Source of the DNA: Escherichia phage vB_EcoM-LTH01
Length of the DNA: 64,000 nucleotides
Strand: one strand, 5' to 3'
Sequence record: PP430345
The first letter of the stretch is position 1; every line of letters starts with the position of its first letter. Below are positions 4,395 through 42,442 of this stretch, in pieces. The position numbers and the translations under genes were made by a program. The notes under the pieces are model-generated. The model was not told where the DNA came from and made no database searches. It saw only the letters and a list, made by a program, of their open reading frames with translations.

Positions 4395-4775
4395 ATGAGT
4401 ATTTTTGACGGTAAAGATTATTTGGTTGCTGATTGGATTCCTATCTCTGCGACACGTAACATTCACATTTACGATGGTGTTAAGAATTTGAATACGACGA
4501 TCATCTACACAAACAGTGAAGAAGACCGTGAAATGCAAATCATGAGTGTCTTCGGTATTGATGATGAGAATAAGATTGAAAAAGGTCGTGCTCGTATTGG
4601 TATCGACATTTTCGACCTGTCTGGTGACCAAAGTGCAGATCCCGTAAACATTGACCGTTCTCGTGTGTTTGCTCACAAAGAAGAACAATTTACGGAAGAA
4701 CTTATTAAAGACTTGCAGATGATCAACACTTTGTTTGATAATGTTCATGAAAAAGTTAAGCGAGTTTATCTCTAA
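4395..4775 (+). CDS. hypothetical protein
   Basis: ORF track; AGGAAAGAAG RBS. Confidence 0.5.
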   Translation: MSIFDGKDYLVADWIPISATRNIHIYDGVKNLNTTIIYTNSEEDREMQIMSVFGIDDENKIEKGRARIGIDIFDLSGDQSADPVNIDRSRVFAHKEEQFTEELIKDLQMINTLFDNVHEKVKRVYL

Positions 4776-4782
4776 AAGTTGT

Positions 4783-4811
4783 TTGCAATTCAAATAAGTT
4801 AGTTGTAATAT
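4783..4811 (+). promoter_or_regulatory. putative sigma70-like promoter (TTGCAA-17-TAATAT)
   Basis: Hexamers read directly upstream of the 4859 gene. Confidence 0.35.
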
Positions 4812-4858: not shown

Positions 4859-6034
4859 ATGTCTGAAGTTAAAGTTATCAATGCTGTATACGATGCTGTT
4901 TCCGATACCACAGTAAACATTGCAGCAGGTACGATTGAACGTATCCTCATTAAACGTATTAATGAAGATGGTAGTCCACGCGTTACCACCTTTAAAGATA
5001 AGAATACAGGTCAGCAAAAAAGCATTAACAATACCCACCGCTATGCAGTTCTTCTGAAAGAAGGTGAAGACCAGGCTTGGATTTCTTTTGGTGAAGGTGA
5101 AGTTAAAAACCTGAAGTATGAGAATCAGTTCCAGATTAAAAATCCTGAAGGTGGTTACACTGATCTTAAAGAAGGTATGAAAATTCGCTTACCTGTTGTT
5201 ATCAAGACCTACACCAAACAAGATGGTAGTCAGGGTTCTTCTACGGAAGGTAAGAAAGCACGTATCAAGATTACTGACGCATCCGGTGCTCGTGAGCCTC
5301 GTCAGCAACAGCAGCAATCAAGTGGTTCCCAACAGCAGCAAAAGCCGTCTGGTGGTGCAGCTAAGAAGATTTATGGTGATATCACATCTATCGAAGGCAA
5401 TAAGGTAGTTGTTAAGCTGGAAGACGGCACAGAAGTTACTGTAAACCTCACTGATGAACAGACGGGTCAGATTACAGAAGGTGGTCGTATTGCAGGTGTT
5501 CGTTCAGATGATGGTACGGTTACAAGCTTTAAAGCTTACGGTCCAAAAGGTGCAAATACTGGAACAGGATCACGTTCAGGTAAAGGTAAAGACGATCTGC
5601 CTATTCGTTTAGGTAATGCACTGTCTATCACAGATGCGATGTTCCCGAATGAAACGATCGCAAATCAGGGTATTGTTGTAGAGCAAGTTCTTGCAGCGAT
5701 GGACTCCATTAAAGCAAAACTTCGCGAAGAGTTTAAATCTATGGATGATTATTCTTTTGGTGCTCGTTTAGGCCAGTGTGGTATTCTTTCTGCCCGTTGG
5801 GGAAGTAATAACATTGAAACGTTTATTGCTAAAACAGAAGAGAATTTCCGATTTATCTGTCAGTTGGAAGATAAGATCCGTAACGGGGCTTCAACCCCTA
5901 AGCAAGAAGAAAAGAAATCTGAGCCGGAACCGCAGTTAACTCCGTCAGCAGAAGATTCACCTACACCTGATATCGAAGGCCATGTGAATATGTCTGTAGA
6001 TGATATGGATTTTGACGACGATATTCCGTTTTGA
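4859..6034 (+). CDS. ssDNA-binding-like protein with E. coli SSB-type acidic C-terminal tip
   Basis: Strong RBS AAAGGAGA; C-terminus MSVDDMDFDDDIPF matches the host SSB tip; internal Q/G/S-rich linker (REPRQQQQQSSGSQQQQKPSGG); N-terminal fold not assignable by eye. Confidence 0.5.
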   Translation: MSEVKVINAVYDAVSDTTVNIAAGTIERILIKRINEDGSPRVTTFKDKNTGQQKSINNTHRYAVLLKEGEDQAWISFGEGEVKNLKYENQFQIKNPEGGYTDLKEGMKIRLPVVIKTYTKQDGSQGSSTEGKKARIKITDASGAREPRQQQQQSSGSQQQQKPSGGAAKKIYGDITSIEGNKVVVKLEDGTEVTVNLTDEQTGQITEGGRIAGVRSDDGTVTSFKAYGPKGANTGTGSRSGKGKDDLPIRLGNALSITDAMFPNETIANQGIVVEQVLAAMDSIKAKLREEFKSMDDYSFGARLGQCGILSARWGSNNIETFIAKTEENFRFICQLEDKIRNGASTPKQEEKKSEPEPQLTPSAEDSPTPDIEGHVNMSVDDMDFDDDIPF

Positions 6035-6054
6035 TCGTAAAATTTAGATAAAAA

Positions 6055-6084
6055 TAAAGGCGCTCATTTGAGCGCCTTTTCTTT
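6055..6084. terminator. bidirectional rho-independent terminator between convergent genes
   Basis: Hairpin AGGCGCTC-ATTT-GAGCGCCT flanked by A-run on one side and T-run on the other. Confidence 0.6.
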
Positions 6085-7318
6085 ATGCTGGAATAACTAT
6101 ACCTTCCAAGTTAAACTTCTGAGCTATCGTATTAGAGGCCGTAAAGTCAGCAGGGTACATAGCCCCTGTGTAACCTCTCCCTGTCCAGTAAAGATTACCA
6201 TTGCCACTAACAATTACTTTAAAAGTGTCAGCCAATGAGCCAGTCATATGGAGAATGCCGCCATCATCTATAATATCTTGATGTATGCTTTCAAAAGATG
6301 TTGCGTTGGTGGTTATAGGAAGATCTCTAAATAAGGAGTATGTGTATCCACCTTGTCCACCTGTCGATTGATAAACTCCATTAACCCTGTCAGAGATGAA
6401 TACTTGCAGTGCTGCCCTAGTGCTCACACTTGCGTTTGTATAACTGATCTGGTTAGTTAGGTAAACTTCAACTCCAGCAGGAATGCTTGCCATAGGTGCT
6501 AAATTAGGACCGAGGACGTTGGTTGAGTTTATCCCTGCTCTTGCTGCCGATCCAACTGCATCCCATGACCCATCTTCCCTCTGTGCAACAATAAGTATAA
6601 TAGATTGAGCACCTGAACCGCCAGCCGTGTTAGCCACTTGACCACGAGCACATTTTGCCCTAATATATCTTACAGAAGGGTCCCCAATAGTTGTCCAAGT
6701 TGATAATATTGTTCCGGCAGAAGTACCTGCTACTTGATCTACACCATTGTCGCCTCGGTATTTTAAAGTCCCATCAACCTCGACACGAATAGCATTATAG
6801 TTTGCAAAATACAGATATTTTGTTTTTTCACCCCAAGCTATTTGGGGTCCGTCTGGAAGAAGTCTATAAACAGTGCCGTCAGGTTGGATCGCATATGATC
6901 TAGCTATTTGTATTGCGGAAGATAAGATATTTACGCCGTCAACAATGTATGCAGATTCAGGCAAGACGTTCCAACTGTTTTGGAGAGTTGTGTCAACAGC
7001 GGGGAAGATTACGGCAGAGATATATTCATAGTGGTTATTATTTTTCTTAACCCATACACCGCCGTACAGTGTACTGTCTGTGCCTGCCTCATAAACTTCT
7101 TCGACACCCGTGTTAGTGAGTGTCCATCCAGAAGTTGCATTATTTGTGGTCCCTGTTTTACCAAGCCCGTTTAAATAATTAGATCCGGTTACATACAGAT
7201 GCCCATTAGTAAGCAAAATAAAAATATTTCCTGTACTGGTGCTTACGGCATATTTGATTGTAACGCCTACAGGCAGCGGAACACCGCCGCCGAAGTTAAT
7301 AATTGGAAAAGGGATCAT
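6083..7318 (-). CDS. putative tail fiber / receptor-binding protein
   Basis: Last gene of tail module, Gly/Thr/Asn-rich; AGGAGG RBS; family not assignable by eye. Confidence 0.45.
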   Translation of the reverse strand: MIPFPIINFGGGVPLPVGVTIKYAVSTSTGNIFILLTNGHLYVTGSNYLNGLGKTGTTNNATSGWTLTNTGVEEVYEAGTDSTLYGGVWVKKNNNHYEYISAVIFPAVDTTLQNSWNVLPESAYIVDGVNILSSAIQIARSYAIQPDGTVYRLLPDGPQIAWGEKTKYLYFANYNAIRVEVDGTLKYRGDNGVDQVAGTSAGTILSTWTTIGDPSVRYIRAKCARGQVANTAGGSGAQSIILIVAQREDGSWDAVGSAARAGINSTNVLGPNLAPMASIPAGVEVYLTNQISYTNASVSTRAALQVFISDRVNGVYQSTGGQGGYTYSLFRDLPITTNATSFESIHQDIIDDGGILHMTGSLADTFKVIVSGNGNLYWTGRGYTGAMYPADFTASNTIAQKFNLEGIVIPA

Positions 7319-7328
7319 TTATCCTCCT

Positions 7329-7353
7329 AAAAAGAAAAGGCCCCGAAGGGCCT
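7329..7353 (-). terminator. intrinsic terminator (GGCCC-CGAA-GGGCC hairpin + U-tract)
   Basis: Hairpin 7338-7353 followed on minus strand by TTTTCTTTT. Confidence 0.5.
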
Positions 7354-7356
7354 CTA

Positions 7357-10300
7357 TTAGCGACGAGTGATGAATACGTCAATCAATGGGCCTTTGCCAC
7401 GATAAACCATGTTAACTACCGATACAGTGTTTGCATCTGTGTTGATGGTTTCAGTACCGTGTACAACAAACTCCGATCCGAATGTTACCGCATGTCCACC
7501 TGTACCATCCTGTTCAAAGAAGAGGAACACTGACTCACCTTTTCCTGAACTCAACAGGCCAATCGGTGCTTTCACTTCAACATCATTTATAACGTTTACG
7601 TTATATATGCTCGTTGAGCCGTCTGGGATATAAGAAGAAGAGGTGGTGCTTACTTCTTTTGGTGTGGTGCTGAACTTGCTTGCGGAAATGGCGTTTTCAG
7701 AACTAAGGGATTGAACATTTAACGGTACAGTCGGGATATTAAACTGACCAGTTACAGTCAGGTCTGTTATGTTCGCCGTCGTTAACGTAGCTGTCGTGGT
7801 AGACAAAGATGCAGGCTCGATCGCCTTTCCAGACAAGTCGATATTGCCAGAGATGTTACCAACAACAGTCAGGTTTCCACCAACTCGAAGGTTCTTGTTG
7901 ATGTTTGCACCGGAAAGAGAAGTTATCCCGTATGTAGGTGCACCTTCATAATCTTCACCGAATGTACCAGATAATCCAGTTACCGATGTACGAGACTCAA
8001 TGGAAAGGGCACTTACTGTTCCCGTTGAGGTCATAGAAGCAACGTTAACGTCTTGAGAGCTAAGGTCAATGTTGCCAGTTACAGTTCCTGTTACGTTAAG
8101 GTCGCCCTGAATCTCACCTGGTCCACGAACTTCAAGAGCAGGATCACTAGACCCGACAGTACGAGTGATAACCGTGTTACCTGAAGTTACTTTACCAGCA
8201 CGGATATCATCGGTGATGACTTGATCAATGTTGCCTATCCCTGAAACCTCTAAGCTTCCTGCCATTACTTGTCCAGTTGAAATCAAAGAACCAACTTCAG
8301 CTTGACCTGTGGCAACAATTGCAGTAGTCTGAATCTCAACTTGAGCGGTTACGCTACGGGGAGAGATATCTTTACCGTTTATGCTTTCCGCTGTCCCTAA
8401 GGCGTTACCATTCGCGTCCAGAAGAGATCCAAATACCTGTACGTCATTGAAGCTTGCTTGACCTTGAACAGATGTGATATTACCAGCGGTGATAGTCAAA
8501 CCATCATTTAAGGTAACAGCACCTTCCAAGAGGCTAGTCTCTTCGACACGTAGCGTTTTAGTTCTCACAGACGTTGCAGACTGCACACTATTTGGAAGAA
8601 TGTCTTGACCAGTGACGTTTGCAAAGAATTGCTCACCATTGGCATTTGTCAGGTTTCCAGTTACCTGAAGATCTACCGTAGTAATCTTTTGATTGTTGGT
8701 TATGTTATTAGCAGTAACCTCGTCAAAAGTTGATCCACGAGTAACCGTCAGGGTATTAACCTGAATGTCCCGCCCAGTGAGGTCTACTTCAAAACCTGTT
8801 ACAGTTCCCGTGATTGTCAGGTTATTTACCTGAGTTTCTCCAGTGGCTGTCAGGTTTGCCGTTGTAACGCTCTCAGAAGCTTCTACAGACGTTGTTTCCA
8901 CAGAGGATGGGAGAATGTCTTGTCCGTCAACATTTCCCGTTACAGTGATTCCTGTGGTGGTTCCTGTGACTACAAGATTGTTAACCGTTGTGGTCGAAGT
9001 TGTTCCTGCGGTAATGTCGCCACTAACTGAGAGGCTCGCACCATCAATTGCAGCAGCCGTTATGTCCCCAGTATCTAAGCTTTGGATACTTAACTCACCG
9101 TCTAGAGTAATATCACCACGAACACGCATGTTGTTACCAACATCGATGTTTCCTGTGGTTGTCACCGAAGAAGGAGAGATTGCTTCACCATCAATAGAGA
9201 CTGTAACTCCCGTCAGGTTTCCAGTGATCTCAAGATCCTTGATCGTTGCCTTGTTAGTCACTGTCAGATCTTGGAATTCAACAGCAGAAGTTCCAAAGTC
9301 GATATCGGCCCTGAGTGTTCCATTAACCGTCAGGTTGTTTACCGTAACATCGCCGGAAGCAGTAGTAGGTCCAGTAATGTTTAAGCTCTCTGCCACAGTA
9401 ACAGATGTTGCACTCACATTACGAGGGGAAATGTCTTTCCCGTCAACACCGATTCCAGCACCCGTGAGAGTACCTTCGATTCTTACATTTTTCAATACTG
9501 TATTGCCAGCAACGGCAAGATCTGCACCGAGAGTTGTATTTCCCTTGACCTCCGCAGTTCTTTCAACCACAATGCTGTTAGGATTAATATCCAGACCTTC
9601 AACGTCAGCCTTCAATCCTTCAATGGTGTTCGTCACACGAAGAGTATTTATTTCCGCAATACCGTCAACGATCAGCTGTGGGCGGTCTTCTGCGTTATTG
9701 GCATTACCCTCTAAGTGAAGATAGTCACCTTGCATGAATCCATCAACATCAAGAGAATTCGTGGAAACAGAGGTATTTCCAACCTTGATCTCTCTCGCAG
9801 TTATATTATCGCTATCAACAACACCAGTGGTGACTTGGAAAGGCTTTATATTTGTTCTTTTGGTTAACCCTGCCTGGGGTGGAACGCCATTTTGTTCAAA
9901 TGCGATTTCTGCGTCTGTGCCTGTCATTCGTAATCTTTTTAAAGATAATTCGGCATCAAGAGCAGCGATCCTGTCGCCAGTGAAGATGGTTTCTCCACTT
10001 ACATAGAGATCTTTCAGACTCGCATCATCTGCAACGATAATGTTTTGGAATTCACCTTTGGACTCTTCAAGAACCTCACCACGTACTTTTTCTATTTCTC
10101 GGCTAACCCAAGCGGTGTTCGCGATAGTAAATGAGCTATCACCTTCAGCAGCAAGAGGTACAGTAGGGTTTCCACGGAAGACAGGGGAAAGGATAGGGGC
10201 GTAAGTTTCTTGAATGTTACCTTTATCGAAGAAAGGTCTGAACTTCCCGTCGTTGATCGGACTGTCTCGCATAACGACAGGGGTACTAGTAGTTGCACCT

Positions 10301-10590
10301 GGGGCATACCACCAAGTTACGTTGCCATTTACATCGGTAAAGGCATACAACTGATTGAATTCAATAACTGAACTTCCATTTCTCCACGGTAACGGTGGAG
10401 TTTTGAAATAAAAGTTATCAATTATTGCTTTACGTACACTCGGGATTAAGCTACCATCTTCTGTAACAGCTTGTTCAGTTGCTGTGCCGTTGACGATCAA
10501 ATGAAGTCTTCGAGAGTCTTCGATGATCTGATCAACAGCAAGGTCTGCTTCGGTGCTTACCAGTGCCAATATATCAGTATTAGACGACAC
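7357..10590 (-). CDS. large tail fiber / tailspike-like protein (1077 aa)
   Basis: Repetitive T/G/N/V-rich segments (recurring ...GxDISPxSV... units); position in tail module. Confidence 0.6.
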   Translation of the reverse strand: MSSNTDILALVSTEADLAVDQIIEDSRRLHLIVNGTATEQAVTEDGSLIPSVRKAIIDNFYFKTPPLPWRNGSSVIEFNQLYAFTDVNGNVTWWYAPGATTSTPVVMRDSPINDGKFRPFFDKGNIQETYAPILSPVFRGNPTVPLAAEGDSSFTIANTAWVSREIEKVRGEVLEESKGEFQNIIVADDASLKDLYVSGETIFTGDRIAALDAELSLKRLRMTGTDAEIAFEQNGVPPQAGLTKRTNIKPFQVTTGVVDSDNITAREIKVGNTSVSTNSLDVDGFMQGDYLHLEGNANNAEDRPQLIVDGIAEINTLRVTNTIEGLKADVEGLDINPNSIVVERTAEVKGNTTLGADLAVAGNTVLKNVRIEGTLTGAGIGVDGKDISPRNVSATSVTVAESLNITGPTTASGDVTVNNLTVNGTLRADIDFGTSAVEFQDLTVTNKATIKDLEITGNLTGVTVSIDGEAISPSSVTTTGNIDVGNNMRVRGDITLDGELSIQSLDTGDITAAAIDGASLSVSGDITAGTTSTTTVNNLVVTGTTTGITVTGNVDGQDILPSSVETTSVEASESVTTANLTATGETQVNNLTITGTVTGFEVDLTGRDIQVNTLTVTRGSTFDEVTANNITNNQKITTVDLQVTGNLTNANGEQFFANVTGQDILPNSVQSATSVRTKTLRVEETSLLEGAVTLNDGLTITAGNITSVQGQASFNDVQVFGSLLDANGNALGTAESINGKDISPRSVTAQVEIQTTAIVATGQAEVGSLISTGQVMAGSLEVSGIGNIDQVITDDIRAGKVTSGNTVITRTVGSSDPALEVRGPGEIQGDLNVTGTVTGNIDLSSQDVNVASMTSTGTVSALSIESRTSVTGLSGTFGEDYEGAPTYGITSLSGANINKNLRVGGNLTVVGNISGNIDLSGKAIEPASLSTTTATLTTANITDLTVTGQFNIPTVPLNVQSLSSENAISASKFSTTPKEVSTTSSSYIPDGSTSIYNVNVINDVEVKAPIGLLSSGKGESVFLFFEQDGTGGHAVTFGSEFVVHGTETINTDANTVSVVNMVYRGKGPLIDVFITRR

Positions 10591-10602
10591 AGTTTTCTCC
10601 TC

Positions 10603-10863
10603 TTACTTGTTTTCGTCGGAAGGGTCTTTATCTTTTTTCAAAGATAATCCCCAACGGAGGTTGATGAGGTCACTCAACAGGTGTGGGGCCACTACCGTAG
10701 GGGCATAAAGCCATACGTACCATTCAGGCAATGTATTGTTGAATCCATACCAGAGAAAGACGGCAGTCATAGCAGCCATACCTACGTTAGACCAAAACTT
10801 CGTATGAGAAGCTTTATCTGGTTCCACCGCAGAGGTCACTAGGTCTTTGAGAAATTTTAACAT
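10603..10863 (-). CDS. small membrane protein (holin-like topology; function unknown)
   Basis: One hydrophobic helix plus charged C-terminus. Confidence 0.35.
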   Translation of the reverse strand: MLKFLKDLVTSAVEPDKASHTKFWSNVGMAAMTAVFLWYGFNNTLPEWYVWLYAPTVVAPHLLSDLINLRWGLSLKKDKDPSDENK

Positions 10864-10885
10864 AGATCACCTTCATTATCAATGT

Positions 10886-11344
10886 TCATACCATGTGGGC
10901 AATGAGCACTAGAAATATCACTACTGCTGTTCTTATCCATTCCGGTACGGTATTATCCTTCCAAGAATAAACGAACACAAAGGTTTCTATGAAATATTTG
11001 TGAGCGTCTCTAAGAGCGAATTCGTAAACCCATAAGGGGAACAATTCTGGATATTGGATTGCAAACACTTGAATAAGCATGAACGGAATACTTAGGCATA
11101 CGATAAGTTTTTGTCGTAATCCTTTCACTGTACAACCCATAGTGAAAAGCAGTATCGAATCCAATGTCCAGACGACATTAAAATAAAGAGTGATATCGAA
11201 ATTGATTTGCGTAGAGAAGAACCAAAGGATCAGGTTCTCCAATACGAGATAGGCCAGGCAAAGCCCAGCCATTATCTTTGTTCCACTCTCTTTTCGAGTA
11301 GCAAGGATTACGAAACAAATGCCATATATTATGGCTGTAATCAT
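10886..11344 (-). CDS. polytopic membrane protein
   Basis: About four hydrophobic segments. Confidence 0.45.
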   Translation of the reverse strand: MITAIIYGICFVILATRKESGTKIMAGLCLAYLVLENLILWFFSTQINFDITLYFNVVWTLDSILLFTMGCTVKGLRQKLIVCLSIPFMLIQVFAIQYPELFPLWVYEFALRDAHKYFIETFVFVYSWKDNTVPEWIRTAVVIFLVLIAHMV

Positions 11345-11673
11345 TTGCGGTTCTCAATAATTTTGTTTAGTAATTCTCGAATATCCTTCTGTAGAGCGTG
11401 GTTTTCTTCTTTTGCTTCCTTTCGCATATCTGTGATATCGGTCCTAATATCTTGGATCGTATCGGTGATATGTTTTATCTTACGGTCAAGAATGGCATCG
11501 ATACTATCCTTAGTAACCGCAGATTCCTTCAAGCGAAGAACATCTTTTTCAAGCTCACTTTGACGTGACTCTAATTTTTTAAAGTCGGTGTAAAAGATCT
11601 TTAATGCACCCAGCAAAATGAATGTTAAAAGACCCCAAAGTGCTTTCAGAACTGCCATTATATCAACAATCAT
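11341..11673 (-). CDS. membrane-anchored coiled-coil protein (start reassigned to internal ATG)
   Basis: ORF-track start 11706 lies inside a GC hairpin (11685-11708); GGAGA RBS precedes ATG at 11673 (MIVDIMAVLK...); N-terminal TM then heptad-rich charged domain. Confidence 0.4.
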   Translation of the reverse strand: MIVDIMAVLKALWGLLTFILLGALKIFYTDFKKLESRQSELEKDVLRLKESAVTKDSIDAILDRKIKHITDTIQDIRTDITDMRKEAKEENHALQKDIRELLNKIIENRK

Positions 11674-11712
11674 AAGTCTCCATAGTCGGGCCGAAGCCCG
11701 ACTCATCTAAGG

Positions 11713-12333
11713 TTAAAAGGTGAACTCTGACCAGTCGATATCACCAGGGGAGGTGCTATCAGGGATACGCATGACTTTAACTCTCATCTTGCGAAGATCG
11801 TTATATCTCTCAAGCTCATCGTCTGTAGCATCTCCCAATTCAACAGCATCCTGAAGCGGAACGATAACAGAACCGATCACTTGCAGAATGCCAGCCTTTC
11901 TTGCAGCGGTGCTAAAAGCAGGGTCATAATCTGCCTTAACTACCTGTTTACCGTTGAATGACCAAACACCGCCTTGCAAAGAAAAATCTTTGGGAAGTGT
12001 ATTAAGATCCACAACAGACAAACCACCTGGGTGAAGACGAGTAACCTCTTCACTCTTTGCCCAGCCACGGACAATACTATGTTCATCAAAGAAAACAACA
12101 TATTTCTTTTTGAACAGTTCGCGAGAGTCGTAGAAATCACGACCTTTATCGTCCTGAAAATACTGAACACCTTCTCCAAAAGCTTTAACTTCCGGTGTAT
12201 AAAGCTTGAAGTTATTCATTCTCATAATTAGCCCTCCACCGTTACCCATACGCCAGACATACGCTTCTGGATTGGTTTGTAATAACCTTGGTTTAATCCA
12301 AGTCCCGCTGAAACAACACCAGTGATTACGCAA
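11713..12333 (-). CDS. tail fiber assembly (chaperone) protein-like
   Basis: Directly downstream of tail fiber gene with overlap; size and acidic C-terminal region typical of Tfa/gpG-type proteins; true start may be an internal ATG. Confidence 0.5.
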   Translation of the reverse strand: MRNHWCCFSGTWIKPRLLQTNPEAYVWRMGNGGGLIMRMNNFKLYTPEVKAFGEGVQYFQDDKGRDFYDSRELFKKKYVVFFDEHSIVRGWAKSEEVTRLHPGGLSVVDLNTLPKDFSLQGGVWSFNGKQVVKADYDPAFSTAARKAGILQVIGSVIVPLQDAVELGDATDDELERYNDLRKMRVKVMRIPDSTSPGDIDWSEFTF

Positions 12334-13862
12334 CCTGCCGGAGCACGTACAGGACTGGTATAGTTGTCCCCATTCATTGTCGTTTGTTGCTCAATACCTA
12401 AACGAACATCTTCGATAGTTTGAACAACTACGGCTGGAATAACTGTAACCTGCCTTGTTGCTTGGATTCCCGTAATAGATCCACGAACAGTAATAACAGC
12501 AGTACCTGGAGCAACACCCGATACATATCCACTTTGTGTAACGACAGCAACGTTAGCATTACTGGTGGAATACACTAGCGGCTCGTTGGAGTTGGCAGGT
12601 GTTCTGTTAACAGGGATCACTTCAGAATCGTTAACTTCCACACTAGGGATGCTGCCGATACTGATCGCTGTCAATGGTGTGTATGAAACTATTTTAACCT
12701 GTGCCGATATACCTGTGGAGATAGAGGCAATGATGTTAGTTTCACCTGGTCCAGTCAATCTTACATTACCAGCGCTATCCACGGTTGCAACATTACCATT
12801 CTGAGAGGTCCAAGTAACAGGATATTGGCTCGCCAAGTTTGCAGGGAGAACTTGAGCAGATATCCCTTGGGTAAAACCTACACGATTTGTAATGCTATCT
12901 GGTGTAGTAACAAGTGCAGTTGGTGACAGACTTCCAGTACCTTGTGCCTGATCAGTCTTGATAATGTACATCACTGCGACGTTCTTAGGTCTGTTTTCCG
13001 GTGCAGTCGGAACTACACGGCTTGCATCGAATCGAACATCACCTGCTGGGTTTTTACGATCGTGGTCAGGACCCGAGTTTGAGTTATATTGCGTATAAAG
13101 CGCACCTTGTTCACGATAACCGTGATCAGTACGGATACTTTCGTAACCCATTACACCCGTAATGTTTCGAATCGCATCACCTTGAATAGAACCTAAAGCA
13201 CGACCAGAGTCAGGGTCGTAAGCTCCAGATCCGTGCGCCCATCCACGAAGGAACAATCCACGATAATCAGGGACTACGTTTCGTCCTAAAACTTGGTACA
13301 GTCGTGGGTTCTGAGATGTACTGAATACTTGCCCGTTACACTCCAAGAATCCCGCCGGAGGAACTTGACCAGCCCAAGTAAGAATTGCACCAATCGGAAC
13401 CAGACGAGGCTCAAGCTCATCAATACGTGCGTTTAATCGGGAAACTGCATTATCTAAGTCTTGAGATAAACGAGTAACACGCTGATCAACCGCAGTGATC
13501 TCACGACGAAGATCTGCAACAGTCTGCTCTACATAAGTTCTTAAAGTTGCAACAGATTGTCTTACGTTCGCAACATCTTCACGAATAACTTCCAGTTGAT
13601 TGTTTACTCGTGTTTCGAGTTCCTGAATCAGTCGCTTGTATTCTTCTTCAACCTCTGGAAACTTCTCTTCTACGATCCAATTAAGCCAAGCACCAGACTG
13701 GTGAAGAATATAGTTGAATTCTTCTGCCGCTGGTTTTTGCCCTTTGTCATAGCCCTTTGCTAAAAGGTCATCAATCGGTTTTGATTTGTTAGGTCTTCCA
13801 GTACCAGGAAGGTTAACATCTTGTGCCGCAAAGACAACAATCGGTGTTGTTGGTCTAGCCAT
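12228..13862 (-). CDS. tail fiber protein with collar-like and Ig-like (Big_2-type) domains
   Basis: LTWAGQVPPAGFLECNGQVFS...PDYRGLFLRGW resembles phage tail-collar domain; TWTSQNGNVATVDSAGNVRLTGPGETNIIAS resembles Big_2 repeats. Confidence 0.65.
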   Translation of the reverse strand: MARPTTPIVVFAAQDVNLPGTGRPNKSKPIDDLLAKGYDKGQKPAAEEFNYILHQSGAWLNWIVEEKFPEVEEEYKRLIQELETRVNNQLEVIREDVANVRQSVATLRTYVEQTVADLRREITAVDQRVTRLSQDLDNAVSRLNARIDELEPRLVPIGAILTWAGQVPPAGFLECNGQVFSTSQNPRLYQVLGRNVVPDYRGLFLRGWAHGSGAYDPDSGRALGSIQGDAIRNITGVMGYESIRTDHGYREQGALYTQYNSNSGPDHDRKNPAGDVRFDASRVVPTAPENRPKNVAVMYIIKTDQAQGTGSLSPTALVTTPDSITNRVGFTQGISAQVLPANLASQYPVTWTSQNGNVATVDSAGNVRLTGPGETNIIASISTGISAQVKIVSYTPLTAISIGSIPSVEVNDSEVIPVNRTPANSNEPLVYSTSNANVAVVTQSGYVSGVAPGTAVITVRGSITGIQATRQVTVIPAVVVQTIEDVRLGIEQQTTMNGDNYTSPVRAPAGCVITGVVSAGLGLNQGYYKPIQKRMSGVWVTVEG

Positions 13863-13874
13863 TAAATTCTCCCA

Positions 13875-14516
13875 TTAAAAGCCCCAAGGGTCTTCGTCGT
13901 CAGATACATAAACTAAAGTTGCAAGTCCACCCGCGCCAGTACGATCAGTGTCGTAGACGGATGCCCACCCAAATGCTTGTTCGTCACCCTCAAATCCAAA
14001 CGGGTATCCCTGATTCTCCACAACTCGCAAGTGAGTCACCAGAGGGAGCATATCAAGTATTTGGTCAAGAATAAGCTCAACTTCCACACAGGTATTGAAG
14101 ATGTTAATATCCATACGGTAATTTCTACCCTTATAGGTAGTCACACCCTCCTCACCGAATAATTGCTTCAGTGTGGATATAATTTCAGATCTTGTTCCAC
14201 TTTTAGATCCAATAGCTGTAAGGATTATAATAACAGCCCTGTACTCAGGATCATTCAATCCGTTACGGAAGATACCGTTTTGTCTGCCTATTTCGTCGAG
14301 AGTGTCGCCCTCTGCATTGATGATTGTTCTCATCTCTGCCAGTTCAACAGCTTTCTGATCTATGAGTTCAAGACGTTTCAAGAAGATCTCAAGGACCTTT
14401 TGGATGTTATCTTTATTCTCAAAGATCTCAGGGGGTAAATAATCAATACCCCCTTTGACGAAATCAGGCAGAGGATGGATGTGGTTAACATCCTTCTTTT
14501 CTGTAACCTCTGCCAT
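13875..14516 (-). CDS. baseplate/tail protein (P2 gpI-like position)
   Basis: Position between baseplate J-like gene and tail fiber; size ~210 aa. Confidence 0.4.
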   Translation of the reverse strand: MAEVTEKKDVNHIHPLPDFVKGGIDYLPPEIFENKDNIQKVLEIFLKRLELIDQKAVELAEMRTIINAEGDTLDEIGRQNGIFRNGLNDPEYRAVIIILTAIGSKSGTRSEIISTLKQLFGEEGVTTYKGRNYRMDINIFNTCVEVELILDQILDMLPLVTHLRVVENQGYPFGFEGDEQAFGWASVYDTDRTGAGGLATLVYVSDDEDPWGF

Positions 14517-14525
14517 TCTTTCTCC

Positions 14526-16010
14526 TTAAACTATCTGACGGAATTCAATATTCTCTGCGGACAGGGCGAATACTTCAGTAACATCGGCAGATACATCTGT
14601 TCCAACATAGGAAGACTCAGGTTCTTCTACGTTCTTAATCTCAACAAAAACTTGAGTGAAACGAGATGATGCCGTTGAACTGATAACTGTACCTACCAAC
14701 TGAACGTTGTACAGAGTTCCGGCTATAATAGTCCCATTTATCGCAGTAATCAAGCTATTTGAGATAGTTGTTTCTTCGACAACAGAAAGAGGTCTTCCAC
14801 GATAGCTGATTCTCATACTCAGGTTACGAGCTTGGGCCTTCGTGTGCCAGATTGTTTCTACTTGGTCATCTTCAGTGGTGATGTTGTAGAAAGTACTCCC
14901 TGACGTATTGTTGGAACCAGCGATAGTGTCGTAAAGTACCTGACTGATTTCAGCAGTGTTACCACCGTAAACAACAGGCATGAAGGAGTAAGGAGGCACA
15001 CCAACAGAGTTTGTCTTGTCGGTATTGTTTGCAAAGATCCTTACCTTCTCTATACCCTCAACTTTGTTCAGCAGTGCAGAAAGGATCGCTGCACGAGTGG
15101 CCTTTCCTGTGTTAACTGCATCAATTGCACGGAGACGGTATTCATTATCTGATTCTACGTCTGACCCTGGGGTGAATGCAATCAGGTTCGTCAAGTCAAG
15201 GAAACCCGCCGGAACCGGACTTATTCCACGAACACTGAAAGCATCACGAGATGTTAAACCAGGCTCCGTAGCTCTAACATCCATTGTGATAGTTCTAGTA
15301 CCTGCCAATGGTTGAGTACGGAAATCGATTCTGCTTGACAAGCCGATAAGGTTCTTGTTACTATCATACCCAATGTGGATAGAGTTGGCTACGGAATCAA
15401 TAATGATTTTATCACGGTTGGACAGGATAGTGTTCTCCACAATGAAATCTTTAATTGCAGAGAAGAATGCGATAACAGGCGCACCAGTGGTGGCTGTCAA
15501 TTGATATGTCATGGTCTTGATCGATTGATCATTGATGTTCTGGATCTGTAATCGGTAACTTCCGACAGAAAGATCCGAACCACGGATGACCTGAGCAAAA
15601 ATGTTTCCTGCAACCTGAACATCGTTAGATAGACGATAATCGTTGTCGATGGTGTATGCAGAGGCAGAGTAAATCATGTTGTAAGGGATAGTGGAATCAA
15701 TGGTCAACTGAACCTGACCTGTGCTTCGAGTCTTCCCGTTACGATAAATACCACGCTTAGATAAAAGGTCGTCAAGGTAAATACCTTCTGCACCTTGCAT
15801 TGTCTGTGCGTAATAAACAGAACCCATCAACAACCAGAGTTGATATTCACGTTCGTTAAAGATAGAAATGAGTTTGTCAGCAACTGAGTTACTTTCGGTA
15901 TTGAAATCTTCACCAAATTCATTCTTGAAAGTTTTCTTCGTTTCCTGAATCAAGTCTTCCATCGGCGGGAGGTTAAATCCACTACCCGTTAGACCGTAAT
16001 TGGACGCCAT
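14526..16010 (-). CDS. baseplate J-like wedge protein
   Basis: Size and position upstream of tail fiber genes in Mu/P2-like order. Confidence 0.55.
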   Translation of the reverse strand: MASNYGLTGSGFNLPPMEDLIQETKKTFKNEFGEDFNTESNSVADKLISIFNEREYQLWLLMGSVYYAQTMQGAEGIYLDDLLSKRGIYRNGKTRSTGQVQLTIDSTIPYNMIYSASAYTIDNDYRLSNDVQVAGNIFAQVIRGSDLSVGSYRLQIQNINDQSIKTMTYQLTATTGAPVIAFFSAIKDFIVENTILSNRDKIIIDSVANSIHIGYDSNKNLIGLSSRIDFRTQPLAGTRTITMDVRATEPGLTSRDAFSVRGISPVPAGFLDLTNLIAFTPGSDVESDNEYRLRAIDAVNTGKATRAAILSALLNKVEGIEKVRIFANNTDKTNSVGVPPYSFMPVVYGGNTAEISQVLYDTIAGSNNTSGSTFYNITTEDDQVETIWHTKAQARNLSMRISYRGRPLSVVEETTISNSLITAINGTIIAGTLYNVQLVGTVISSTASSRFTQVFVEIKNVEEPESSYVGTDVSADVTEVFALSAENIEFRQIV

Positions 16011-38870: not shown

Positions 38871-40358
38871 TTATCGTCTATACCTGGAATACATCGTAGG
38901 GGCGTGAGGTCGTGGTATTGGAACAGCACGGACAATTTCTGTTTTCTCCAGATAGTTAATACCCGAAGAGATGGCATCCACCCAGTCGTCCTTACGTGAT
39001 CCAGTTGACCTCTCGCCGTCGAAAGATTCAAGTTCCTTCAATAAAGCTTCTAATGTGTCCACAGGGAAAGATTTCTCAACAATCCGTACAAATCCGTTCT
39101 GTGCTAAGTTAGCGAACGGAGAGAAGCGTACAAGCTTCTTTTTGTTACCTGGTGTTGGGTCTTTCTCAACCATGAACCCTTGATTCAATAACTCACGAGA
39201 AGATGTAGTAAATTCGGATAGACCTGCTTGACCAGGGTCAACAGGGAAGATGATCCTAACGTCATCTCCGTCATGTATTGCCTGTTTAAGAATAATCTTG
39301 TCACGCTCACCTGCTTTTTTGCAGAAGCGTCCGGCTTGTCCAGTGGACCAATCGCCAGTATCAACGAATTCATCACAATAATCACCGAACAGGTAGTAGA
39401 ACCCATCCTGATCTCGCGCTACACCTATACCTGCCGTGAAGTCAGGTGTTTTGTTACCTGTGGAACGCTCTGTACCTGCTTTATCGTAAGATCTAACCTT
39501 GTCGCAATTAAGCGGGAGATGATCTACATTTTTGAGGAAAGAACGTTTAAAATAGTTTGCACCCTGCGGACGAGCATCCCAGTTACCATGAAGAAGTCGT
39601 GCACGGTCAACCTCGTTAAGACCTTCCAACTGAGCAAGGTATTCGGGGTTGTTGATAAGCATTGGCGGGTTGTCATAAATAGTGGAAGATATGAATGTGA
39701 ACGATACGGGCTTACATTTCTTACCATAACGTTTCTTCAACTCCTCTACTGAGTCTCCCCACATGTATTGGTCATCCACACGGACGAAATAACGAATAAC
39801 TCCGTCTTTTTCAGGATTAGGATAGCCATCCTTATCGAGATACCAGTCAACCATCTTACGAAGGTAATGATCAGGATCAGGGTTGCAACTTATTACCATA
39901 CGGGAAGGGTATTTTGAGTTTGAACGCAAACGGGACATCATATATTCCAACTGTTCCCATTCGAACTGTGTTCCTTCGTCAACTCCGATAAAGGTAAACT
40001 CCAATCCCTGAATATCGAATTTATCGCTTACGTGTTGCATAGACTGCCATTTAACGGTAGCCCCGTTAGGAAATGTTGCAGTCATTTCATTTTCTTTAAA
40101 CTTAGGCTTAACTACCGGAGGTAGTTGGTTGTAAATATCCTTAGCTTTGTCGAACAAACCACCTTGTCCACGAATCTGAGGGACGGTACGACGGAACATG
40201 ATACATGCTGTTCTGGGGTCGTTTACAATCAACAAAGGCATCAACTGGAGCAGGTAGGACTTACCTGATCCTGCTGCACCACCTATAACCATTATTTGTG
40301 CGTCAGATTCGAGAACCATTTGTTGCTTTCGACTCGCTGGTGCGAATGTAGCAGACAT
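38871..40358 (-). CDS. terminase large subunit
   Basis: Walker A GGAAGSGKS near N-terminus, Walker B-like FIGVDEGTQF, C-terminal nuclease-sized domain; first gene of head module. Confidence 0.85.
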   Translation of the reverse strand: MSATFAPASRKQQMVLESDAQIMVIGGAAGSGKSYLLQLMPLLIVNDPRTACIMFRRTVPQIRGQGGLFDKAKDIYNQLPPVVKPKFKENEMTATFPNGATVKWQSMQHVSDKFDIQGLEFTFIGVDEGTQFEWEQLEYMMSRLRSNSKYPSRMVISCNPDPDHYLRKMVDWYLDKDGYPNPEKDGVIRYFVRVDDQYMWGDSVEELKKRYGKKCKPVSFTFISSTIYDNPPMLINNPEYLAQLEGLNEVDRARLLHGNWDARPQGANYFKRSFLKNVDHLPLNCDKVRSYDKAGTERSTGNKTPDFTAGIGVARDQDGFYYLFGDYCDEFVDTGDWSTGQAGRFCKKAGERDKIILKQAIHDGDDVRIIFPVDPGQAGLSEFTTSSRELLNQGFMVEKDPTPGNKKKLVRFSPFANLAQNGFVRIVEKSFPVDTLEALLKELESFDGERSTGSRKDDWVDAISSGINYLEKTEIVRAVPIPRPHAPTMYSRYRR

Positions 40359-40458: not shown

Positions 40459-40758
40459 TTATTTGCAGAACTCTGGTGGATTTTCTTTAAAAATATTACA
40501 AACGTAGGTCTGTAATCCTTCAGCACGTCTTTCTATTCTTGCAGCACGAAGATTGTTATGACTAAGAACGTCAGCAACAGTTGTCTTTGCAGAGCGTTTT
40601 TCCATAACCAGCTTAGGACCTTCTTTCTTCATAAGTTCAAGATCCGGCTTTTCGATCAGCTTTTCTATCTTAACTTCTTCAGTAGGACCACAAATTTCTT
40701 TACTCTGACAACCAACAAGACCAAAACAAAGGATAATTCCGGCGATAATCTTCTTCAT
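40459..40758 (-). CDS. outer-membrane lipoprotein, o-spanin-like
   Basis: MKKIIAGIILCFGLVGC has signal peptide plus lipobox; several Cys; start overlaps stop of upstream TM/coiled-coil gene. Confidence 0.45.
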   Translation of the reverse strand: MKKIIAGIILCFGLVGCQSKEICGPTEEVKIEKLIEKPDLELMKKEGPKLVMEKRSAKTTVADVLSHNNLRAARIERRAEGLQTYVCNIFKENPPEFCK

Positions 40759-41117
40759 TATTCCCCCAGTGATTTGTTATAGATATCAACTATCTCATCA
40801 TCCATAAATATTTCTTGTCCCTTTTTAGATTTTGCATAGTCGATTCTCATTGCCTCTACTTCATCACGTAATTTTTCCTCAGCGATGATCCGTTTTGCAT
40901 TTGCATAAGAAAGTTCTTCATTCAATCTCTTATTCTCTTCCAATGTAGAGTCAAGCTTTCCTTTGTACTCAGTAGCTTTCTTTATCCAAGCCGTGTTTGC
41001 AGCATCGTAGCCTTTGTCATATCCCACAGACTCAACGTGTCCGAGATACAGTTTTCCAGAAGTAAATAACGCAACGCCGATCATTGCGTAAATGAAATAT
41101 TTTTTAGCGGGTAACAT
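40758..41117 (-). CDS. inner-membrane coiled-coil protein, i-spanin-like (start at internal ATG 41117)
   Basis: AAGGAGGA RBS 7 nt before ATG (MLPAKKYFIY...); N-terminal TM then coiled-coil; upstream ATG 41174 would fall inside a terminator. Confidence 0.45.
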   Translation of the reverse strand: MLPAKKYFIYAMIGVALFTSGKLYLGHVESVGYDKGYDAANTAWIKKATEYKGKLDSTLEENKRLNEELSYANAKRIIAEEKLRDEVEAMRIDYAKSKKGQEIFMDDEIVDIYNKSLGE

Positions 41118-41154
41118 ATAAATCCTCCTTTTGGATATTTTATCACCGAAATCA

Positions 41155-41186
41155 CAAATAAAAAAGCCTCCCAAATGAGGGAGGCT
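41155..41186 (-). terminator. intrinsic terminator ending the tRNA operon
   Basis: Hairpin GCCTCCC-TCATTT-GGGAGGC followed on minus strand by TTTTTTATTTG. Confidence 0.6.
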
Positions 41187-41234
41187 GAGGCGAAGGAGAG
41201 GAGATTATATTATTGTTATTATATGAGGGTAAAT

Positions 41235-41309
41235 TGGCTGGGGATACTGGACTCGAACCAGTGAATGTTGGAATCAAAATCCAATGCCTTACCGCTTGGC
41301 TAATCCCCA
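41235..41309 (-). tRNA. tRNA-Gln (anticodon TTG)
   Basis: Manual cloverleaf: 7-bp acceptor, anticodon arm TTGGA-TTTTGAT-TCCAA, T-arm ACTGG-TTCGAGT-CCAGT, encoded CCA; close to E. coli tRNA-Gln. Confidence 0.8.
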
Positions 41310-41317
41310 TTTTTGTT

Positions 41318-41393
41318 TGGAGCGGATAACGAGACTCGAACTCGTGACATTCTGATTGGAAATCAGAAGCTCTACCAACTGAGCTATACCCGC
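41318..41393 (-). tRNA. tRNA-Gly (anticodon TCC)
   Basis: D-arm GCTCAGTTGGTAGAGC, anticodon arm TCTGA-TTTCCAA-TCAGA, T-arm ACGAG-TTCGAGT-CTCGT, CCA encoded. Confidence 0.8.
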
Positions 41394-41398
41394 ATATT

Positions 41399-41475
41399 TG
41401 GTCGGTGTACGAGGATTTGAACCTCGAACCTAATGCTCCCAAAGCATTCGCGCTACCAAGTTGCGCTATACACCG
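41399..41475 (-). tRNA. tRNA-Pro (anticodon TGG)
   Basis: Anticodon arm AATGC-TTTGGGA-GCATT, T-arm CGAGG-TTCAAAT-CCTCG, CCA encoded. Confidence 0.8.
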
Positions 41476-41479
41476 TATT

Positions 41480-41560
41480 TGGCGTGAAGGTGAAGAGTCG
41501 AACTCCTTACGACTGGTTTTGGAGGCCAGCTTGCCACCGTGACAATTATGTTACCCGCAC
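41480..41560 (-). tRNA. tRNA-Trp-like (anticodon CCA), atypical 5' half
   Basis: Anticodon loop CTCCAAA and T-arm GGAGTTCGA resemble tRNA-Trp, but acceptor pairing needs a mismatch and the D-arm region is ~5 nt too long. Confidence 0.4.
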
Positions 41561-41569
41561 ATTAATTTG

Positions 41570-41642
41570 GTTTCCGTACTGGATTCGAACCAGTATCACA
41601 ACGAGACGTTGCGGGAATCTTATCCTATAAGCCTAACGGAAA
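41570..41642 (-). tRNA. tRNA-like element, possibly non-functional
   Basis: Perfect acceptor (TTTCCGT/ACGGAAA), U8-A9 and T-arm ACTGG-TTCGAAT-CCAGT, but anticodon-position hairpin has a 3-nt TCT loop on a 7-bp stem. Confidence 0.3.
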
Positions 41643-41645
41643 ATT

Positions 41646-41732
41646 TGGTGCATTGTGATGGAGTCGAACCACCCGAGTTCTATGAACAGCAGATTTACAG
41701 TCTGCCCCGCTACCCCTACGGTCTAACAATGC
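41646..41732 (-). tRNA. tRNA-Tyr (anticodon GTA), long variable arm
   Basis: Anticodon arm GCAGA-CTGTAAA-TCTGC identical to E. coli tRNA-Tyr; variable arm GTTC-ATA-GAAC; perfect 7-bp acceptor; CCA encoded. Confidence 0.8.
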
Positions 41733-42040
41733 CTTATCCTACGGTCACACAAGTCTGACCATCTATCTCTGAGCAAGGGATTTCAAAATGTCTCCCGTCC
41801 CCAAATACATCTCGCCACATAGTCTATTCGGAAGCGGGAGTCTATGCACACCCCTTGCGGTAAGTGACCTCACTTTGAGATCAGCATCTTCCTTATTCGA
41901 CGAGTTAAATTCTCTTTAAGGTAGCCAGTGTTCGCAGCACTAACTATGAGGTATCCGTAAGATGATTTCAGTCATCTACCGAAAAATTACACCAAGCAAC
42001 TACCTTAAAGAGAACTTCTTAGTAAAGGCCCTTGCGAGCC

Positions 42041-42415
42041 TTAATCTTCACCTTCTGCCATTTTATACTCACGAATCTGAGTAGTTAATGGAATAGCATC
42101 TTTAAATGCATCAGAAGGGCCTTGATGAGTTTCTGAATTTGCAGAAGTAGTTCCTCCTGCCAGATCCTCTTCATTATCTTCCATTGTGTACAGATTGTTT
42201 GCCTTTTCAGCTTGCTCAAGAATATACTTCGCAGTAGTTTCTTTAACTTTCTCTGTACCGGAAGTCAGTAGACCTTCCAGAGTTTTAATTGCTTGAGGAG
42301 TAAGTCTTGCAAACTCGGAACGAGCATGAAGAATTGCTCTCTCAGTATTGATTGCAATGCTTTCCTCTGTAGTAGGCCGACCGCGTTTTCGAGTAACGAT
42401 TTCAGCTTTAGCCAT
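42041..42415 (-). CDS. hypothetical early protein (basic N-terminus RKRGRPTTEE, acidic C-terminus)
   Basis: ORF track 42041-42421; ATG 42415 preferred (GAGG + 5-nt spacer); promoter-like hexamers just upstream. Confidence 0.45.
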   Translation of the reverse strand: MAKAEIVTRKRGRPTTEESIAINTERAILHARSEFARLTPQAIKTLEGLLTSGTEKVKETTAKYILEQAEKANNLYTMEDNEEDLAGGTTSANSETHQGPSDAFKDAIPLTTQIREYKMAEGED

Positions 42416-42442
42416 AAACACCTCAATTCAGTCGATATAACT

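Follow-up and report, generated by a model that had tools for sequence, protein, structure and literature searches.

Three conserved membrane-protein genes in the late tail region of Escherichia phage vB_EcoM-LTH01: a candidate holin and its possible accessory proteins

The membrane-protein genes and their locus

The subject of this analysis is a group of three membrane-protein genes that lie between a tail-fiber assembly chaperone gene and a long tail fiber gene of Escherichia phage vB_EcoM-LTH01 (PP430345), in a window of 64,000 nt that was analyzed as one strand, 5' to 3'. They encode a 110-aa protein with a transmembrane (TM) helix and a coiled coil (11341..11673), a 152-aa polytopic membrane protein (10886..11344) and an 86-aa protein, the probable holin of the set (10603..10863). 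An earlier note on this DNA had placed three membrane-protein genes here, and that layout holds, with three consecutive open reading frames (ORFs). All are read from the minus strand, as are the chaperone gene before them (11713..12225; Pfam Caudo_TAP 5.3e-11, phrog_136 2e-39), the gene for the 1077-aa long tail fiber after them (7357..10590; phrog_4549 2.3e-249) and the late structural genes in general, which occupy ~6-45 kb of the window. We propose that the three genes form a conserved, non-structural membrane module within the late tail operon, and that its core function is the control of host lysis by a holin with accessory regulators, for which we consider the chances to be about even.

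Over window positions 6000-14600 the identity to Escherichia phages W70, A73, UPEC06, A7_1 and A5-4, all of them unclassified Vequintavirinae with genomes of ~137-145 kb, is 94-95%. The closest relative, A7_1, is a large rV5-like myophage of ~145 kb, and the baseplate and fiber segment is ~72% identical to that of Pectobacterium phages phiTE and CB7 of the genus Certrevirus. Judged from their sequences, all three membrane-protein ORFs are real genes. They match phrog_5345 (110-aa protein, 1.6e-35), phrog_7451 (152-aa protein, 1.2e-60) and phrog_1322 (86-aa protein, 1.3e-29), and the first gene differs from its A7_1 counterpart by nine synonymous and no non-synonymous codon changes, which indicates that it is under purifying selection. 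Although the maximal ORF of this first gene extends to 11706, translation most likely starts at the ATG at 11673 to give the 110-aa protein rather than at 11706 to give one of 121 aa. Specifically, ATG 11673 is preceded by GGAG at 7 nt and is the start annotated in UPEC06 and A7_1, while ATG 11706 has no Shine-Dalgarno sequence and is followed 2 nt later by an 8-bp hairpin.

This hairpin, a stem-loop of the form AGUCGGGC-UUCG-GCCCGACU (11684..11703, minus strand), lies in the 39-nt spacer between the stop of the tail-fiber assembly gene and the 110-aa gene and is part of the minimum-energy fold of a 66-nt spacer segment (-17.7 kcal/mol). It has no U-tract and was not called by the terminator scan, and its role may lie in the processing or the stability of the mRNA, or in the attenuation of read-through. 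phiTE carries a different hairpin at the same junction (GGCCGGG-uauuuu-CCCGGCC; L002 ~4757-4790), likewise without a U-tract, and PVP-SE1 has none, because its chaperone and TM-coiled-coil genes abut. The start of the 152-aa gene overlaps the stop of the 110-aa gene (ATGA), the 1077-aa fiber gene begins 12 nt past the end of the 86-aa gene, and the terminator scan gave no terminator-like site between the three genes and the fiber genes, nor any before a strong terminator at 7355-7336, just after the long fiber gene. From this spacing and overlap, and from the lack of a separating terminator-like site, the three genes are very probably expressed with the late tail genes, as had been supposed when they were described as riding on late transcription.

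The order chaperone, TM-coiled-coil protein (~104-112 aa), polytopic protein (~150 aa), two-helix protein (~86 aa) and fiber is found in full in four groups, represented by phiTE (gp238-240), CB7 (CB7_33-35, by position), PVP-SE1 (gp44-42) and Aeromonas phage 2L372D, and IMG/VR contigs of PVP-SE1-like phages show it as well. In 2L372D (Plateaulakevirus; NC_048769) the positional match to the 152-aa protein is an unannotated polytopic membrane ORF of ~146 aa at ~5511-5951, between annotated genes for proteins of 106 and 86 aa. rV5 has retained gp31 and gp29, its TM-coiled-coil and two-helix proteins, and has a tail-fiber paralogue, gp30, in the slot of the polytopic one. The TM-coiled-coil gene still stands right after the chaperone gene in phi92-like and phAPEC8-like phages, where the two-helix gene is found directly upstream of, and abutting, the baseplate wedge gene. 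Indeed, the TM-coiled-coil gene directly follows the tail-fiber assembly gene in every lineage examined. By tblastn, homologues of the 110-, 152- and 86-aa proteins occur in 227, 106 and 376 phage records, respectively, those of the 152-aa protein at 31-98% identity, and the hosts span Escherichia, Salmonella, Klebsiella, Cronobacter, Pectobacterium, Erwinia and Aeromonas. The comparative data thus mark the three genes as an old, conserved part of the phage and not a recent insertion, and the earlier reading of genes inserted inside the tail-fiber locus does not agree with a slot that is kept across several genera and in an Aeromonas Plateaulakevirus.

The three proteins and the virion evidence

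The 86-aa protein is predicted to contain two hydrophobic helices, residues 20-41 and 47-71, separated by a short loop, so that its first description as a single-TM protein needs correction, with both helices being weakly hydrophobic. This assignment uses the secondary structure of an AlphaFold2 (AF2) model alone, since the confidence of the model (predicted local distance difference test, pLDDT, 57) is too low for a fold search. Ahead of the first helix lies a conserved 22-residue N-terminus with the motif KASHTKFWSN, and after R70 the tail (residues 72-86) holds four K/R and four D/E residues and is predicted to be disordered. Holins are small integral proteins of the inner membrane that have one or more TM helices and end in a charged, hydrophilic C-terminus, and the 86-aa protein has these features, with weak hydrophobicity. 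It belongs to phrog_1322, which it matches over nearly its full length (residues 1-83 on profile positions 3-84 of 87; E 1.3e-29), as do its homologues in rV5, phi92-like phages and Aeromonas phages. A profile built from close homologues recovered 95 cluster representatives among 1.8 billion proteins, all of them small and with the motif G-x-x-SHTKxWSN before the first helix. Ten distant members from small phages all match phrog_1322 at 1e-15 to 1e-28, and on that basis they and the 86-aa protein constitute one family.

The databases give this family little more than a label. Pfam DUF2644 (PF10841) has weak matches in 10 of 84 distant relatives scanned (best E 6.3e-5) and is listed for some relatives in precomputed Pfam tables, and the 86-aa protein itself gave no match to it at E ≤ 1; by sequence, its relation to DUF2644 is one of remote homology and not of membership. 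Neither resource assigns a function, PHROG 1322 being termed 'membrane protein'. None of the remote members is named a holin, the names seen being 'hypothetical protein', 'membrane protein' or DUF; as a single exception, phage BME3 labels its phi92-type homologue 'membrane protein-holin', from topology alone (PMC12210895). A search of NCBIfam returned nothing for any of the three proteins, and literature searches for DUF2644 and for PF26221, a label that bears on the 152-aa protein below, found no papers. Mu gp24 was considered as a prototype of DUF2644 and rejected, with an hhalign probability of 0.1% and no DUF2644 match of its own. Longer versions of the 86-aa family, of 100-118 aa with acidic or basic C-terminal extensions, occur in large uncultured phages (IMG/VR contigs of 120-124 kb, L087, L090, L092 and L095, and also L072, L079 and L082), and the genes around these showed no homology with the tail genes of the window.

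The 110-aa protein was correctly described at the outset as a TM plus coiled-coil protein. Its N-terminal TM helix spans about residues 5-28 and is followed by a charged coiled coil of ~80 residues. By jackhmmer its homologues are phiTE gp238, PVP-SE1 gp44, rV5 gp31, the 106-aa Aeromonas protein and the 'lipoprotein' of the phi92 and phAPEC8 groups, and all of them have acidic residues before the TM helix and K/R residues after it, a pattern that, by the positive-inside rule, predicts an N-out/C-in topology with the coiled coil in the cytoplasm. The 'lipoprotein' annotation (phrog_15210), carried for example by BME3 (L004 9933-10274) and Schickermooser (L008 9938-10273), looks wrong, since these proteins have no lipobox cysteine and are homologous to the TM-coiled-coil protein of the window.

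In architecture, and in architecture alone, the 110-aa protein resembles the Mu releasin gp25, an N-out/C-in protein of ~100 aa with an N-terminal TM helix, almost no periplasmic part, a basic membrane-cytoplasm junction and a cytoplasmic helical domain of ~80 residues (PMC9239132). Homology was considered and rejected: the jackhmmer families stay apart, hhalign against Mu gp25 gave a probability of 0.5%, and neither the 110-aa protein nor its rV5, PVP-SE1, phi92-like and Aeromonas homologues matched PF10805 (DUF2730) at E ≤ 1, whereas Mu gp25, the positive control, did so at 2.5e-13. The sole hint from sequence is a match of PVP-SE1 gp44 to phrog_736, the PHROG of Mu gp25, at E 0.0099, with Pfam giving only coiled-coil noise for the 110-aa family. 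It should be noted that reports of DUF2730 are confined to transposable phages, in which its gene comes no more than five genes after that of the endolysin (PMC9239132), which is not the arrangement here. Homology to a second family of TM-coiled-coil proteins, named here after the 92-aa protein of phage Bise (Bise92), was likewise rejected, as the jackhmmer families stay apart and hhalign aligned at most the TM region (probability 80%, 37 columns). Nevertheless, Bise92-like proteins are encoded ~0.7-1 kb downstream of members of the 86-aa family in 16 loci, so that the pairing of architectures recurs, the likeness being, as far as sequences tell, one of architecture.

An Rz-type i-spanin also combines an N-terminal TM helix with a coiled coil, and the 110-aa protein has weak matches to PHROG Rz-like spanin families (E 0.002-0.02). 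The opposite topology is, however, predicted for the 110-aa protein from its charge distribution, no lipobox ORF was found in or beside 11341-11673, and the i-spanin assignment was rejected because the real spanin pair lies at 40.5-41.1 kb. A likeness of the coiled coil to that of the short tail fiber appeared in a late jackhmmer iteration and was set aside as coiled-coil bias; a clean profile of the 110-aa family reached E ~1e-3 against the fiber coiled coil of phiTE, in a tiny database, and nothing for that of the window.

For the 152-aa protein AF2 gave a more confident model (pLDDT 81.7, predicted template modeling score, pTM, 0.70) with helices at residues 2-15, 20-44, 51-72, 76-97, 104-127 and 133-151, six predicted where about four TM segments had been counted. 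Basic loops at 16-23 and 73-79 suggest that both termini face outward. Fold searches returned generic helix-bundle matches only, and the close homologues (P0087-P0124) all carry the precomputed Pfam label PF26221. A homologue is absent from the rV5 locus and was not found in the phi92-like loci examined.

Data on the virions of close relatives argue that these proteins are not parts of the particle. Mass spectrometry of CB7 virions detected the flanking fiber proteins CB7_31, CB7_36 and CB7_37 and did not detect CB7_32-35 (PMC7344957). The near-complete cryo-electron microscopy (cryo-EM) structure of phiTE describes short, long and third fibers and no small membrane proteins; the phiTE fiber gene in the position of the 1077-aa gene encodes a fiber of that study, which we take to be its long tail fiber (PMC11972413). 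For phi92, the cryo-EM model, likewise near-complete, lists gp143 and gp145-147 among others, and not gp144 (PMC13450770), which by position would be the small phi92 protein. Small hydrophobic proteins are hard to detect, and therefore their absence is supportive and not conclusive; the earlier description of membrane proteins that are not normal constituents of the virion is nonetheless consistent with all three data sets. Homologues of the 86-aa protein are labeled 'structural protein' in the ESCO5 and ESCO9 records, for which no supporting data were found.

Lysis cassettes and lysis genes

The 86-aa family occupies the position of the holin in many unrelated phages and prophages. In one locus (L009) a family member lies between a GH108 endolysin gene and an i-spanin gene; in another (L013) genes for an i-spanin and a lipobox o-spanin come after it, and further downstream is a Mu-type portal gene that is directly preceded by a 509-aa ORF, probably the large terminase; and in a third (L015) a Hydrolase_2 gene, two intervening genes, the family member and an i-spanin gene follow in this order. 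An IMG/VR pattern search gave 157 confirmed loci, of which 80 were kept, leaving 43 once rV5-like contigs and near-duplicates had been dropped. Pfam matches of the 36 immediate upstream ORFs were to VanY (11), Peptidase_M15_4 (7), Amidase_2 (6), Peptidase_M15_3 (4) and one each to GH108, CHAP and GH19; the counts overlap within the M15 clan, so that at least 20 of the 36 are peptidoglycan hydrolases. The 37 immediate downstream ORFs belong mostly to PHROG 'Rz-like spanin' families, the largest of which was matched by 13. A strict pattern, in which an endolysin-sized ORF, the family member and a protein of 127-224 aa with an N-terminal TM helix follow one another, is present in 18 of the 43 loci, as counted by pattern.

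The same arrangement exists in a cultured phage, the Mu-like Pseudomonas phage Bise, where the genes for Mor, a soluble M15 peptidase, the family member and an i-spanin with an embedded o-spanin are followed further downstream by that for the 92-aa TM-coiled-coil protein and then by the small terminase gene. The family member is the sole multi-helix membrane protein of the Bise cassette, and a soluble endolysin needs a hole-forming partner. Hence, among the functions suggested earlier for the three genes, that of lysis components is the one favored by the evidence for the 86-aa protein, whose family sits between hydrolases and spanins elsewhere.

The phage group to which vB_EcoM-LTH01 belongs has its other lysis genes scattered. 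In the window an i-spanin gene with an N-terminal TM helix (40758-41117, minus strand) meets at 40758 the gene of an o-spanin lipoprotein with the lipobox LVGC (40459-40758, minus strand). This pair, recognized from the translations (40459..41117), has the A7_1 homologues A71_101 and A71_102 and lies beside and directly upstream of the large terminase gene (38871-40358), 30 kb from the three membrane-protein genes. The arrangement is the same in CB7, rV5 and PVP-SE1 (PMC7344957). No homologue of SleB or of T4 lysozyme was found in the window. A7_1 encodes a soluble 127-aa M15-type 'peptidoglycan hydrolase', A71_42, which is homologous (E 1e-9 to 1e-6) to the M15 endolysins upstream of family members in small phages, and because this hydrolase is soluble a holin is needed here. 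In addition, the SleB-like A71_184, with a Sec-type signal peptide, adjoins the 70-aa, two-TM A71_183 (L100 7440-8164, outside the window), and the two constitute a competing holin and endolysin candidate for this phage group. Their genes lie beside that of a helicase, in a region of replication genes where lysis functions would hardly be expected.

No holin has so far been firmly identified for rV5-like phages. The rV5 authors described an endolysin and 'no homolog to a holin', guessed at gp129 from its topology and noted a separation of holin and lysin like that of T4 (PMC3606486). The CB7 paper describes no classic lysis cassette, places a spanin pair beside the terminase and proposes as a class II holin the 65-aa, two-TM CB7_82, encoded beside a SleB-like hydrolase with a signal peptide (PMC7344957).

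Several further features of the window may be recorded here. The large terminase is encoded by one unbroken ORF (495 aa), whereas introns are reported to split the terminase genes of rV5 and CB7. Five tRNA genes (Gln-ttg, Gly-tcc, Pro-tgg, Tyr-gta and Met-cat; 41235-42682, minus strand) lie a short distance upstream of the spanin pair, and a 96-aa 'ORF' at 41152-41442 is merely a translation of these tRNA genes. The upstream neighbor of the chaperone gene encodes a collar/Ig-domain short tail fiber (12228-13862, minus strand). After the long fiber gene follows that of a 411-aa protein (6083-7318, minus strand), which matches phrog_15692 and, in its first ~100 residues, also a family labeled 'regulator of chromosome condensation'. 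By position it corresponds to CB7_37, which mass spectrometry detected in virions, and it may be a distal fiber or adhesin component. Finally, a bidirectional terminator with a perfect 10-bp stem (6056-6079) stands where a plus-strand block ending at 6034 meets the minus-strand late block ending at 6083.

A possible role in lysis and its alternatives

Based on the data presented herein, we put forward the following hypothetical mechanism. Its directly established basis is the structure of the genes, their conservation, the families to which the proteins belong, the fact that related virions did not show them and the genes that accompany the 86-aa family in other phages; to this we add, as we infer them, how the proteins lie in the membrane, when they are expressed, that holes are formed and that the three may interact. 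The three genes would be transcribed with the baseplate and fiber genes, late in infection. The 86-aa protein would be a holin or holin-like hole-former. With its two weakly hydrophobic helices folded into an N-in/C-in hairpin, it would build up in the inner membrane, trigger at a set time and permeabilize it. Triggering would give the soluble M15-type hydrolase access to the wall, or collapse the proton-motive force and in this way activate the SleB-like hydrolase exported by Sec, or do both, after which the spanin pair encoded beside the terminase gene would disrupt the outer membrane. The 110-aa protein would most likely be a modulator of triggering, antiholin-like or releasin-like, that acts from the cytoplasmic face, and the 152-aa protein would be a lineage-specific accessory that tunes triggering within the membrane where it is present.

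Class II holins, which have two TM helices in an N-in/C-in arrangement and are exemplified by the phage 21 S68 pinholin, share with the 86-aa protein their small size, two helices, short periplasmic loop and charged C-terminal tail. Like it, they have a weakly hydrophobic first helix rich in Gly, Ala, Ser, Thr and Met, and its relatives lie in the slot between endolysin and spanin genes. On the other hand, the protein has no match among the named holin families, a match of one family member to Phage_holin_9 at E 0.17 being noise, and it differs from holins in having no dual-start motif.

Two known systems place lysis control beside tail-fiber genes. In T4 the late holin gene t follows the tail-fiber genes 37 and 38 and is unlinked to the endolysin gene, so that a lysis-timing membrane protein is encoded at the end of a tail-fiber and chaperone block. 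T is, however, a protein of 218 aa with one TM helix and a large periplasmic domain, it has no sequence relationship to the proteins considered here, and the three genes of vB_EcoM-LTH01 lie between two fiber genes. In phage CSP1 a tail-fiber gene and an adjacent single-TM protein suppress lysis in the manner of an antiholin, and the single-TM protein remains anchored in the membrane and binds the holin (PMC13577005). The CSP1_020-022 genes, like those here, are membrane genes beside a tail-fiber gene and far from the holin and endolysin genes (PMC13577005). Compared by description, CSP1 differs in phage type, in genome size (60 kb) and in protein sizes (the CSP1_021 gene has 708 bp), and its genes are dispensable and are lost spontaneously (PMC13577005), whereas those here are conserved across the subfamily.

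A number of observations weigh against the proposed role in lysis. The functional evidence is guilt by association at the level of the family, and the role may have changed in the rV5-like lineage. Neither helix of the 86-aa protein is more than weakly hydrophobic (Kyte-Doolittle maximum of 1.1 over 19 residues), and the identity of this protein between genera is 60-82%, compared with 31-70% for its neighbors, which is unusually high for a holin. In this phage its gene is linked to neither endolysin nor spanin genes, and the group has a second holin candidate in CB7_82 and A71_183 (65-70 aa, two TM helices, beside a SleB-like gene). In ~8 of the small-phage cassettes another small TM protein adjoins the family member, and for this reason the family could be an antiholin or a partner rather than the hole-former. 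With regard to the other two proteins, no homology that would tie the 110-aa family to DUF2730 or to Bise92-like proteins was detected, the fixed place of the 110-aa gene after the chaperone gene could point to a role in fiber assembly, and for the 152-aa protein there is no functional lead.

The last of these considerations but one leads to the idea that the three proteins are membrane-anchored morphogenesis factors, which would aid fiber or baseplate assembly at the inner membrane, or tether the chaperone or nascent fibers there, without entering the virion. The invariable position of the TM-coiled-coil gene, the relocation of the 86-aa homologue to the baseplate wedge gene in phi92- and phAPEC8-like phages, a predicted coiled coil on the cytoplasmic side, where fibers would assemble, and a degree of sequence conservation that fits protein-protein contacts all speak for it. 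We nevertheless consider it unlikely, if worth keeping in mind, as the 86-aa family is found in small-phage lysis cassettes far from tail genes and the profile of the 110-aa protein has no meaningful similarity to the fiber coiled coil. To our knowledge, moreover, no tail-fiber chaperone is a membrane protein.

A rather doubtful alternative keeps the 86-aa protein within lysis but makes it an antiholin or other lysis-timing partner, the true holin being the two-TM protein of the CB7_82/A71_183 type beside the SleB-like hydrolase. CB7_82 was proposed as a class II holin (PMC7344957) and is conserved in A7_1 beside the signal-peptide SleB-like gene, and the small-phage cassettes with a second small TM protein would fit this division of labor. 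In contrast, CB7_82 and CB7_83 are encoded among replication genes next to a helicase gene and not in the late operon, the family member of Bise is the only multi-helix membrane protein beside a soluble endolysin, and the 18 strict three-gene loci, by their pattern, suggest the same.

That the proteins serve superinfection exclusion or immunity, as inner-membrane proteins that keep related phages from bringing in their DNA or from using the receptor, we regard as improbable. Exclusion proteins such as Imm and Sp of T4, Llp of T5 and Cor are known, the genes of Llp and Cor are neighbors of receptor-binding ones and Imm is a small two-helix membrane protein, so that small inner-membrane proteins encoded beside receptor-binding protein genes would be in character, and phrog_1322 is itself filed under 'moron, auxiliary metabolic gene and host takeover'. 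However, the genes are conserved across phages of seven host genera with different fibers and receptors, exclusion proteins act early and the operon here is a late one, relatives of the 86-aa protein are encoded between endolysin and spanin genes elsewhere, and no search gave a sequence link to Imm, Sp, Cor or Llp. Superinfection exclusion had been among the functions named in the earlier note; it keeps this small probability with no positive evidence to sustain it, and nothing in the analysis supports the receptor-modifying proteins named with it.

Barely credible is the moron-like insertion of the same note, a recently acquired, independently expressed cassette that gives a host-related trait: the G+C content of the three genes (0.393) is lower than that of the flanking fiber genes (0.448) and two promoter-like matches fall inside the cluster, but a low G+C content is expected for membrane proteins rich in Phe, Ile and Leu and lies within the range of the window (0.36-0.52), promoter-like sites in the surrounding 8.8 kb number 14 against 16.1 ± 3.4 in shuffled sequences, the terminator scan gave none on the flanks, the genes, with their overlaps and short gaps, seem to be coupled to their neighbors in translation, and the slot is occupied in the same way in each genus of the subfamily that was examined and in phages outside it. 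It is because of this synteny, the spread of homologues, the lack of promoter enrichment and the unexceptional composition that we reject the idea.

A bolder form of the proposed role in lysis is that PHROG 1322 and its DUF2644-like relatives are a widespread holin family unrecognized by the databases, and that the missing holin of rV5-like phages has left a lysis cassette for the tail-fiber and baseplate operon. There, with the TM-coiled-coil protein and, in some lineages, the six-helix protein, it would be part of a new lysis clock and assembly checkpoint, whose cytoplasmic parts could sense the completion of tail or fiber assembly. We think this combination quite unlikely as a whole. Taken alone, the 86-aa protein would add a member, and perhaps a whole family, to the well-known class of holins.

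The rV5-like phages of the Vequintavirinae and their phi92- and phAPEC8-like relatives are common in collections for therapy and biocontrol, and the 86-aa protein of the tail locus offers them a concrete and cheaply testable holin candidate. Its confirmation would give a function to a PHROG/DUF family that is now labeled just 'membrane protein'. The analysis also corrects annotations, namely the 'lipoprotein' of the phi92 group, the 'structural protein' of phAPEC8-like phages and the missing membrane ORF of the Aeromonas phage. If it is true that the 110- and 152-aa proteins regulate lysis, they would provide a second case, after CSP1, of lysis control exerted from among the tail-fiber genes.

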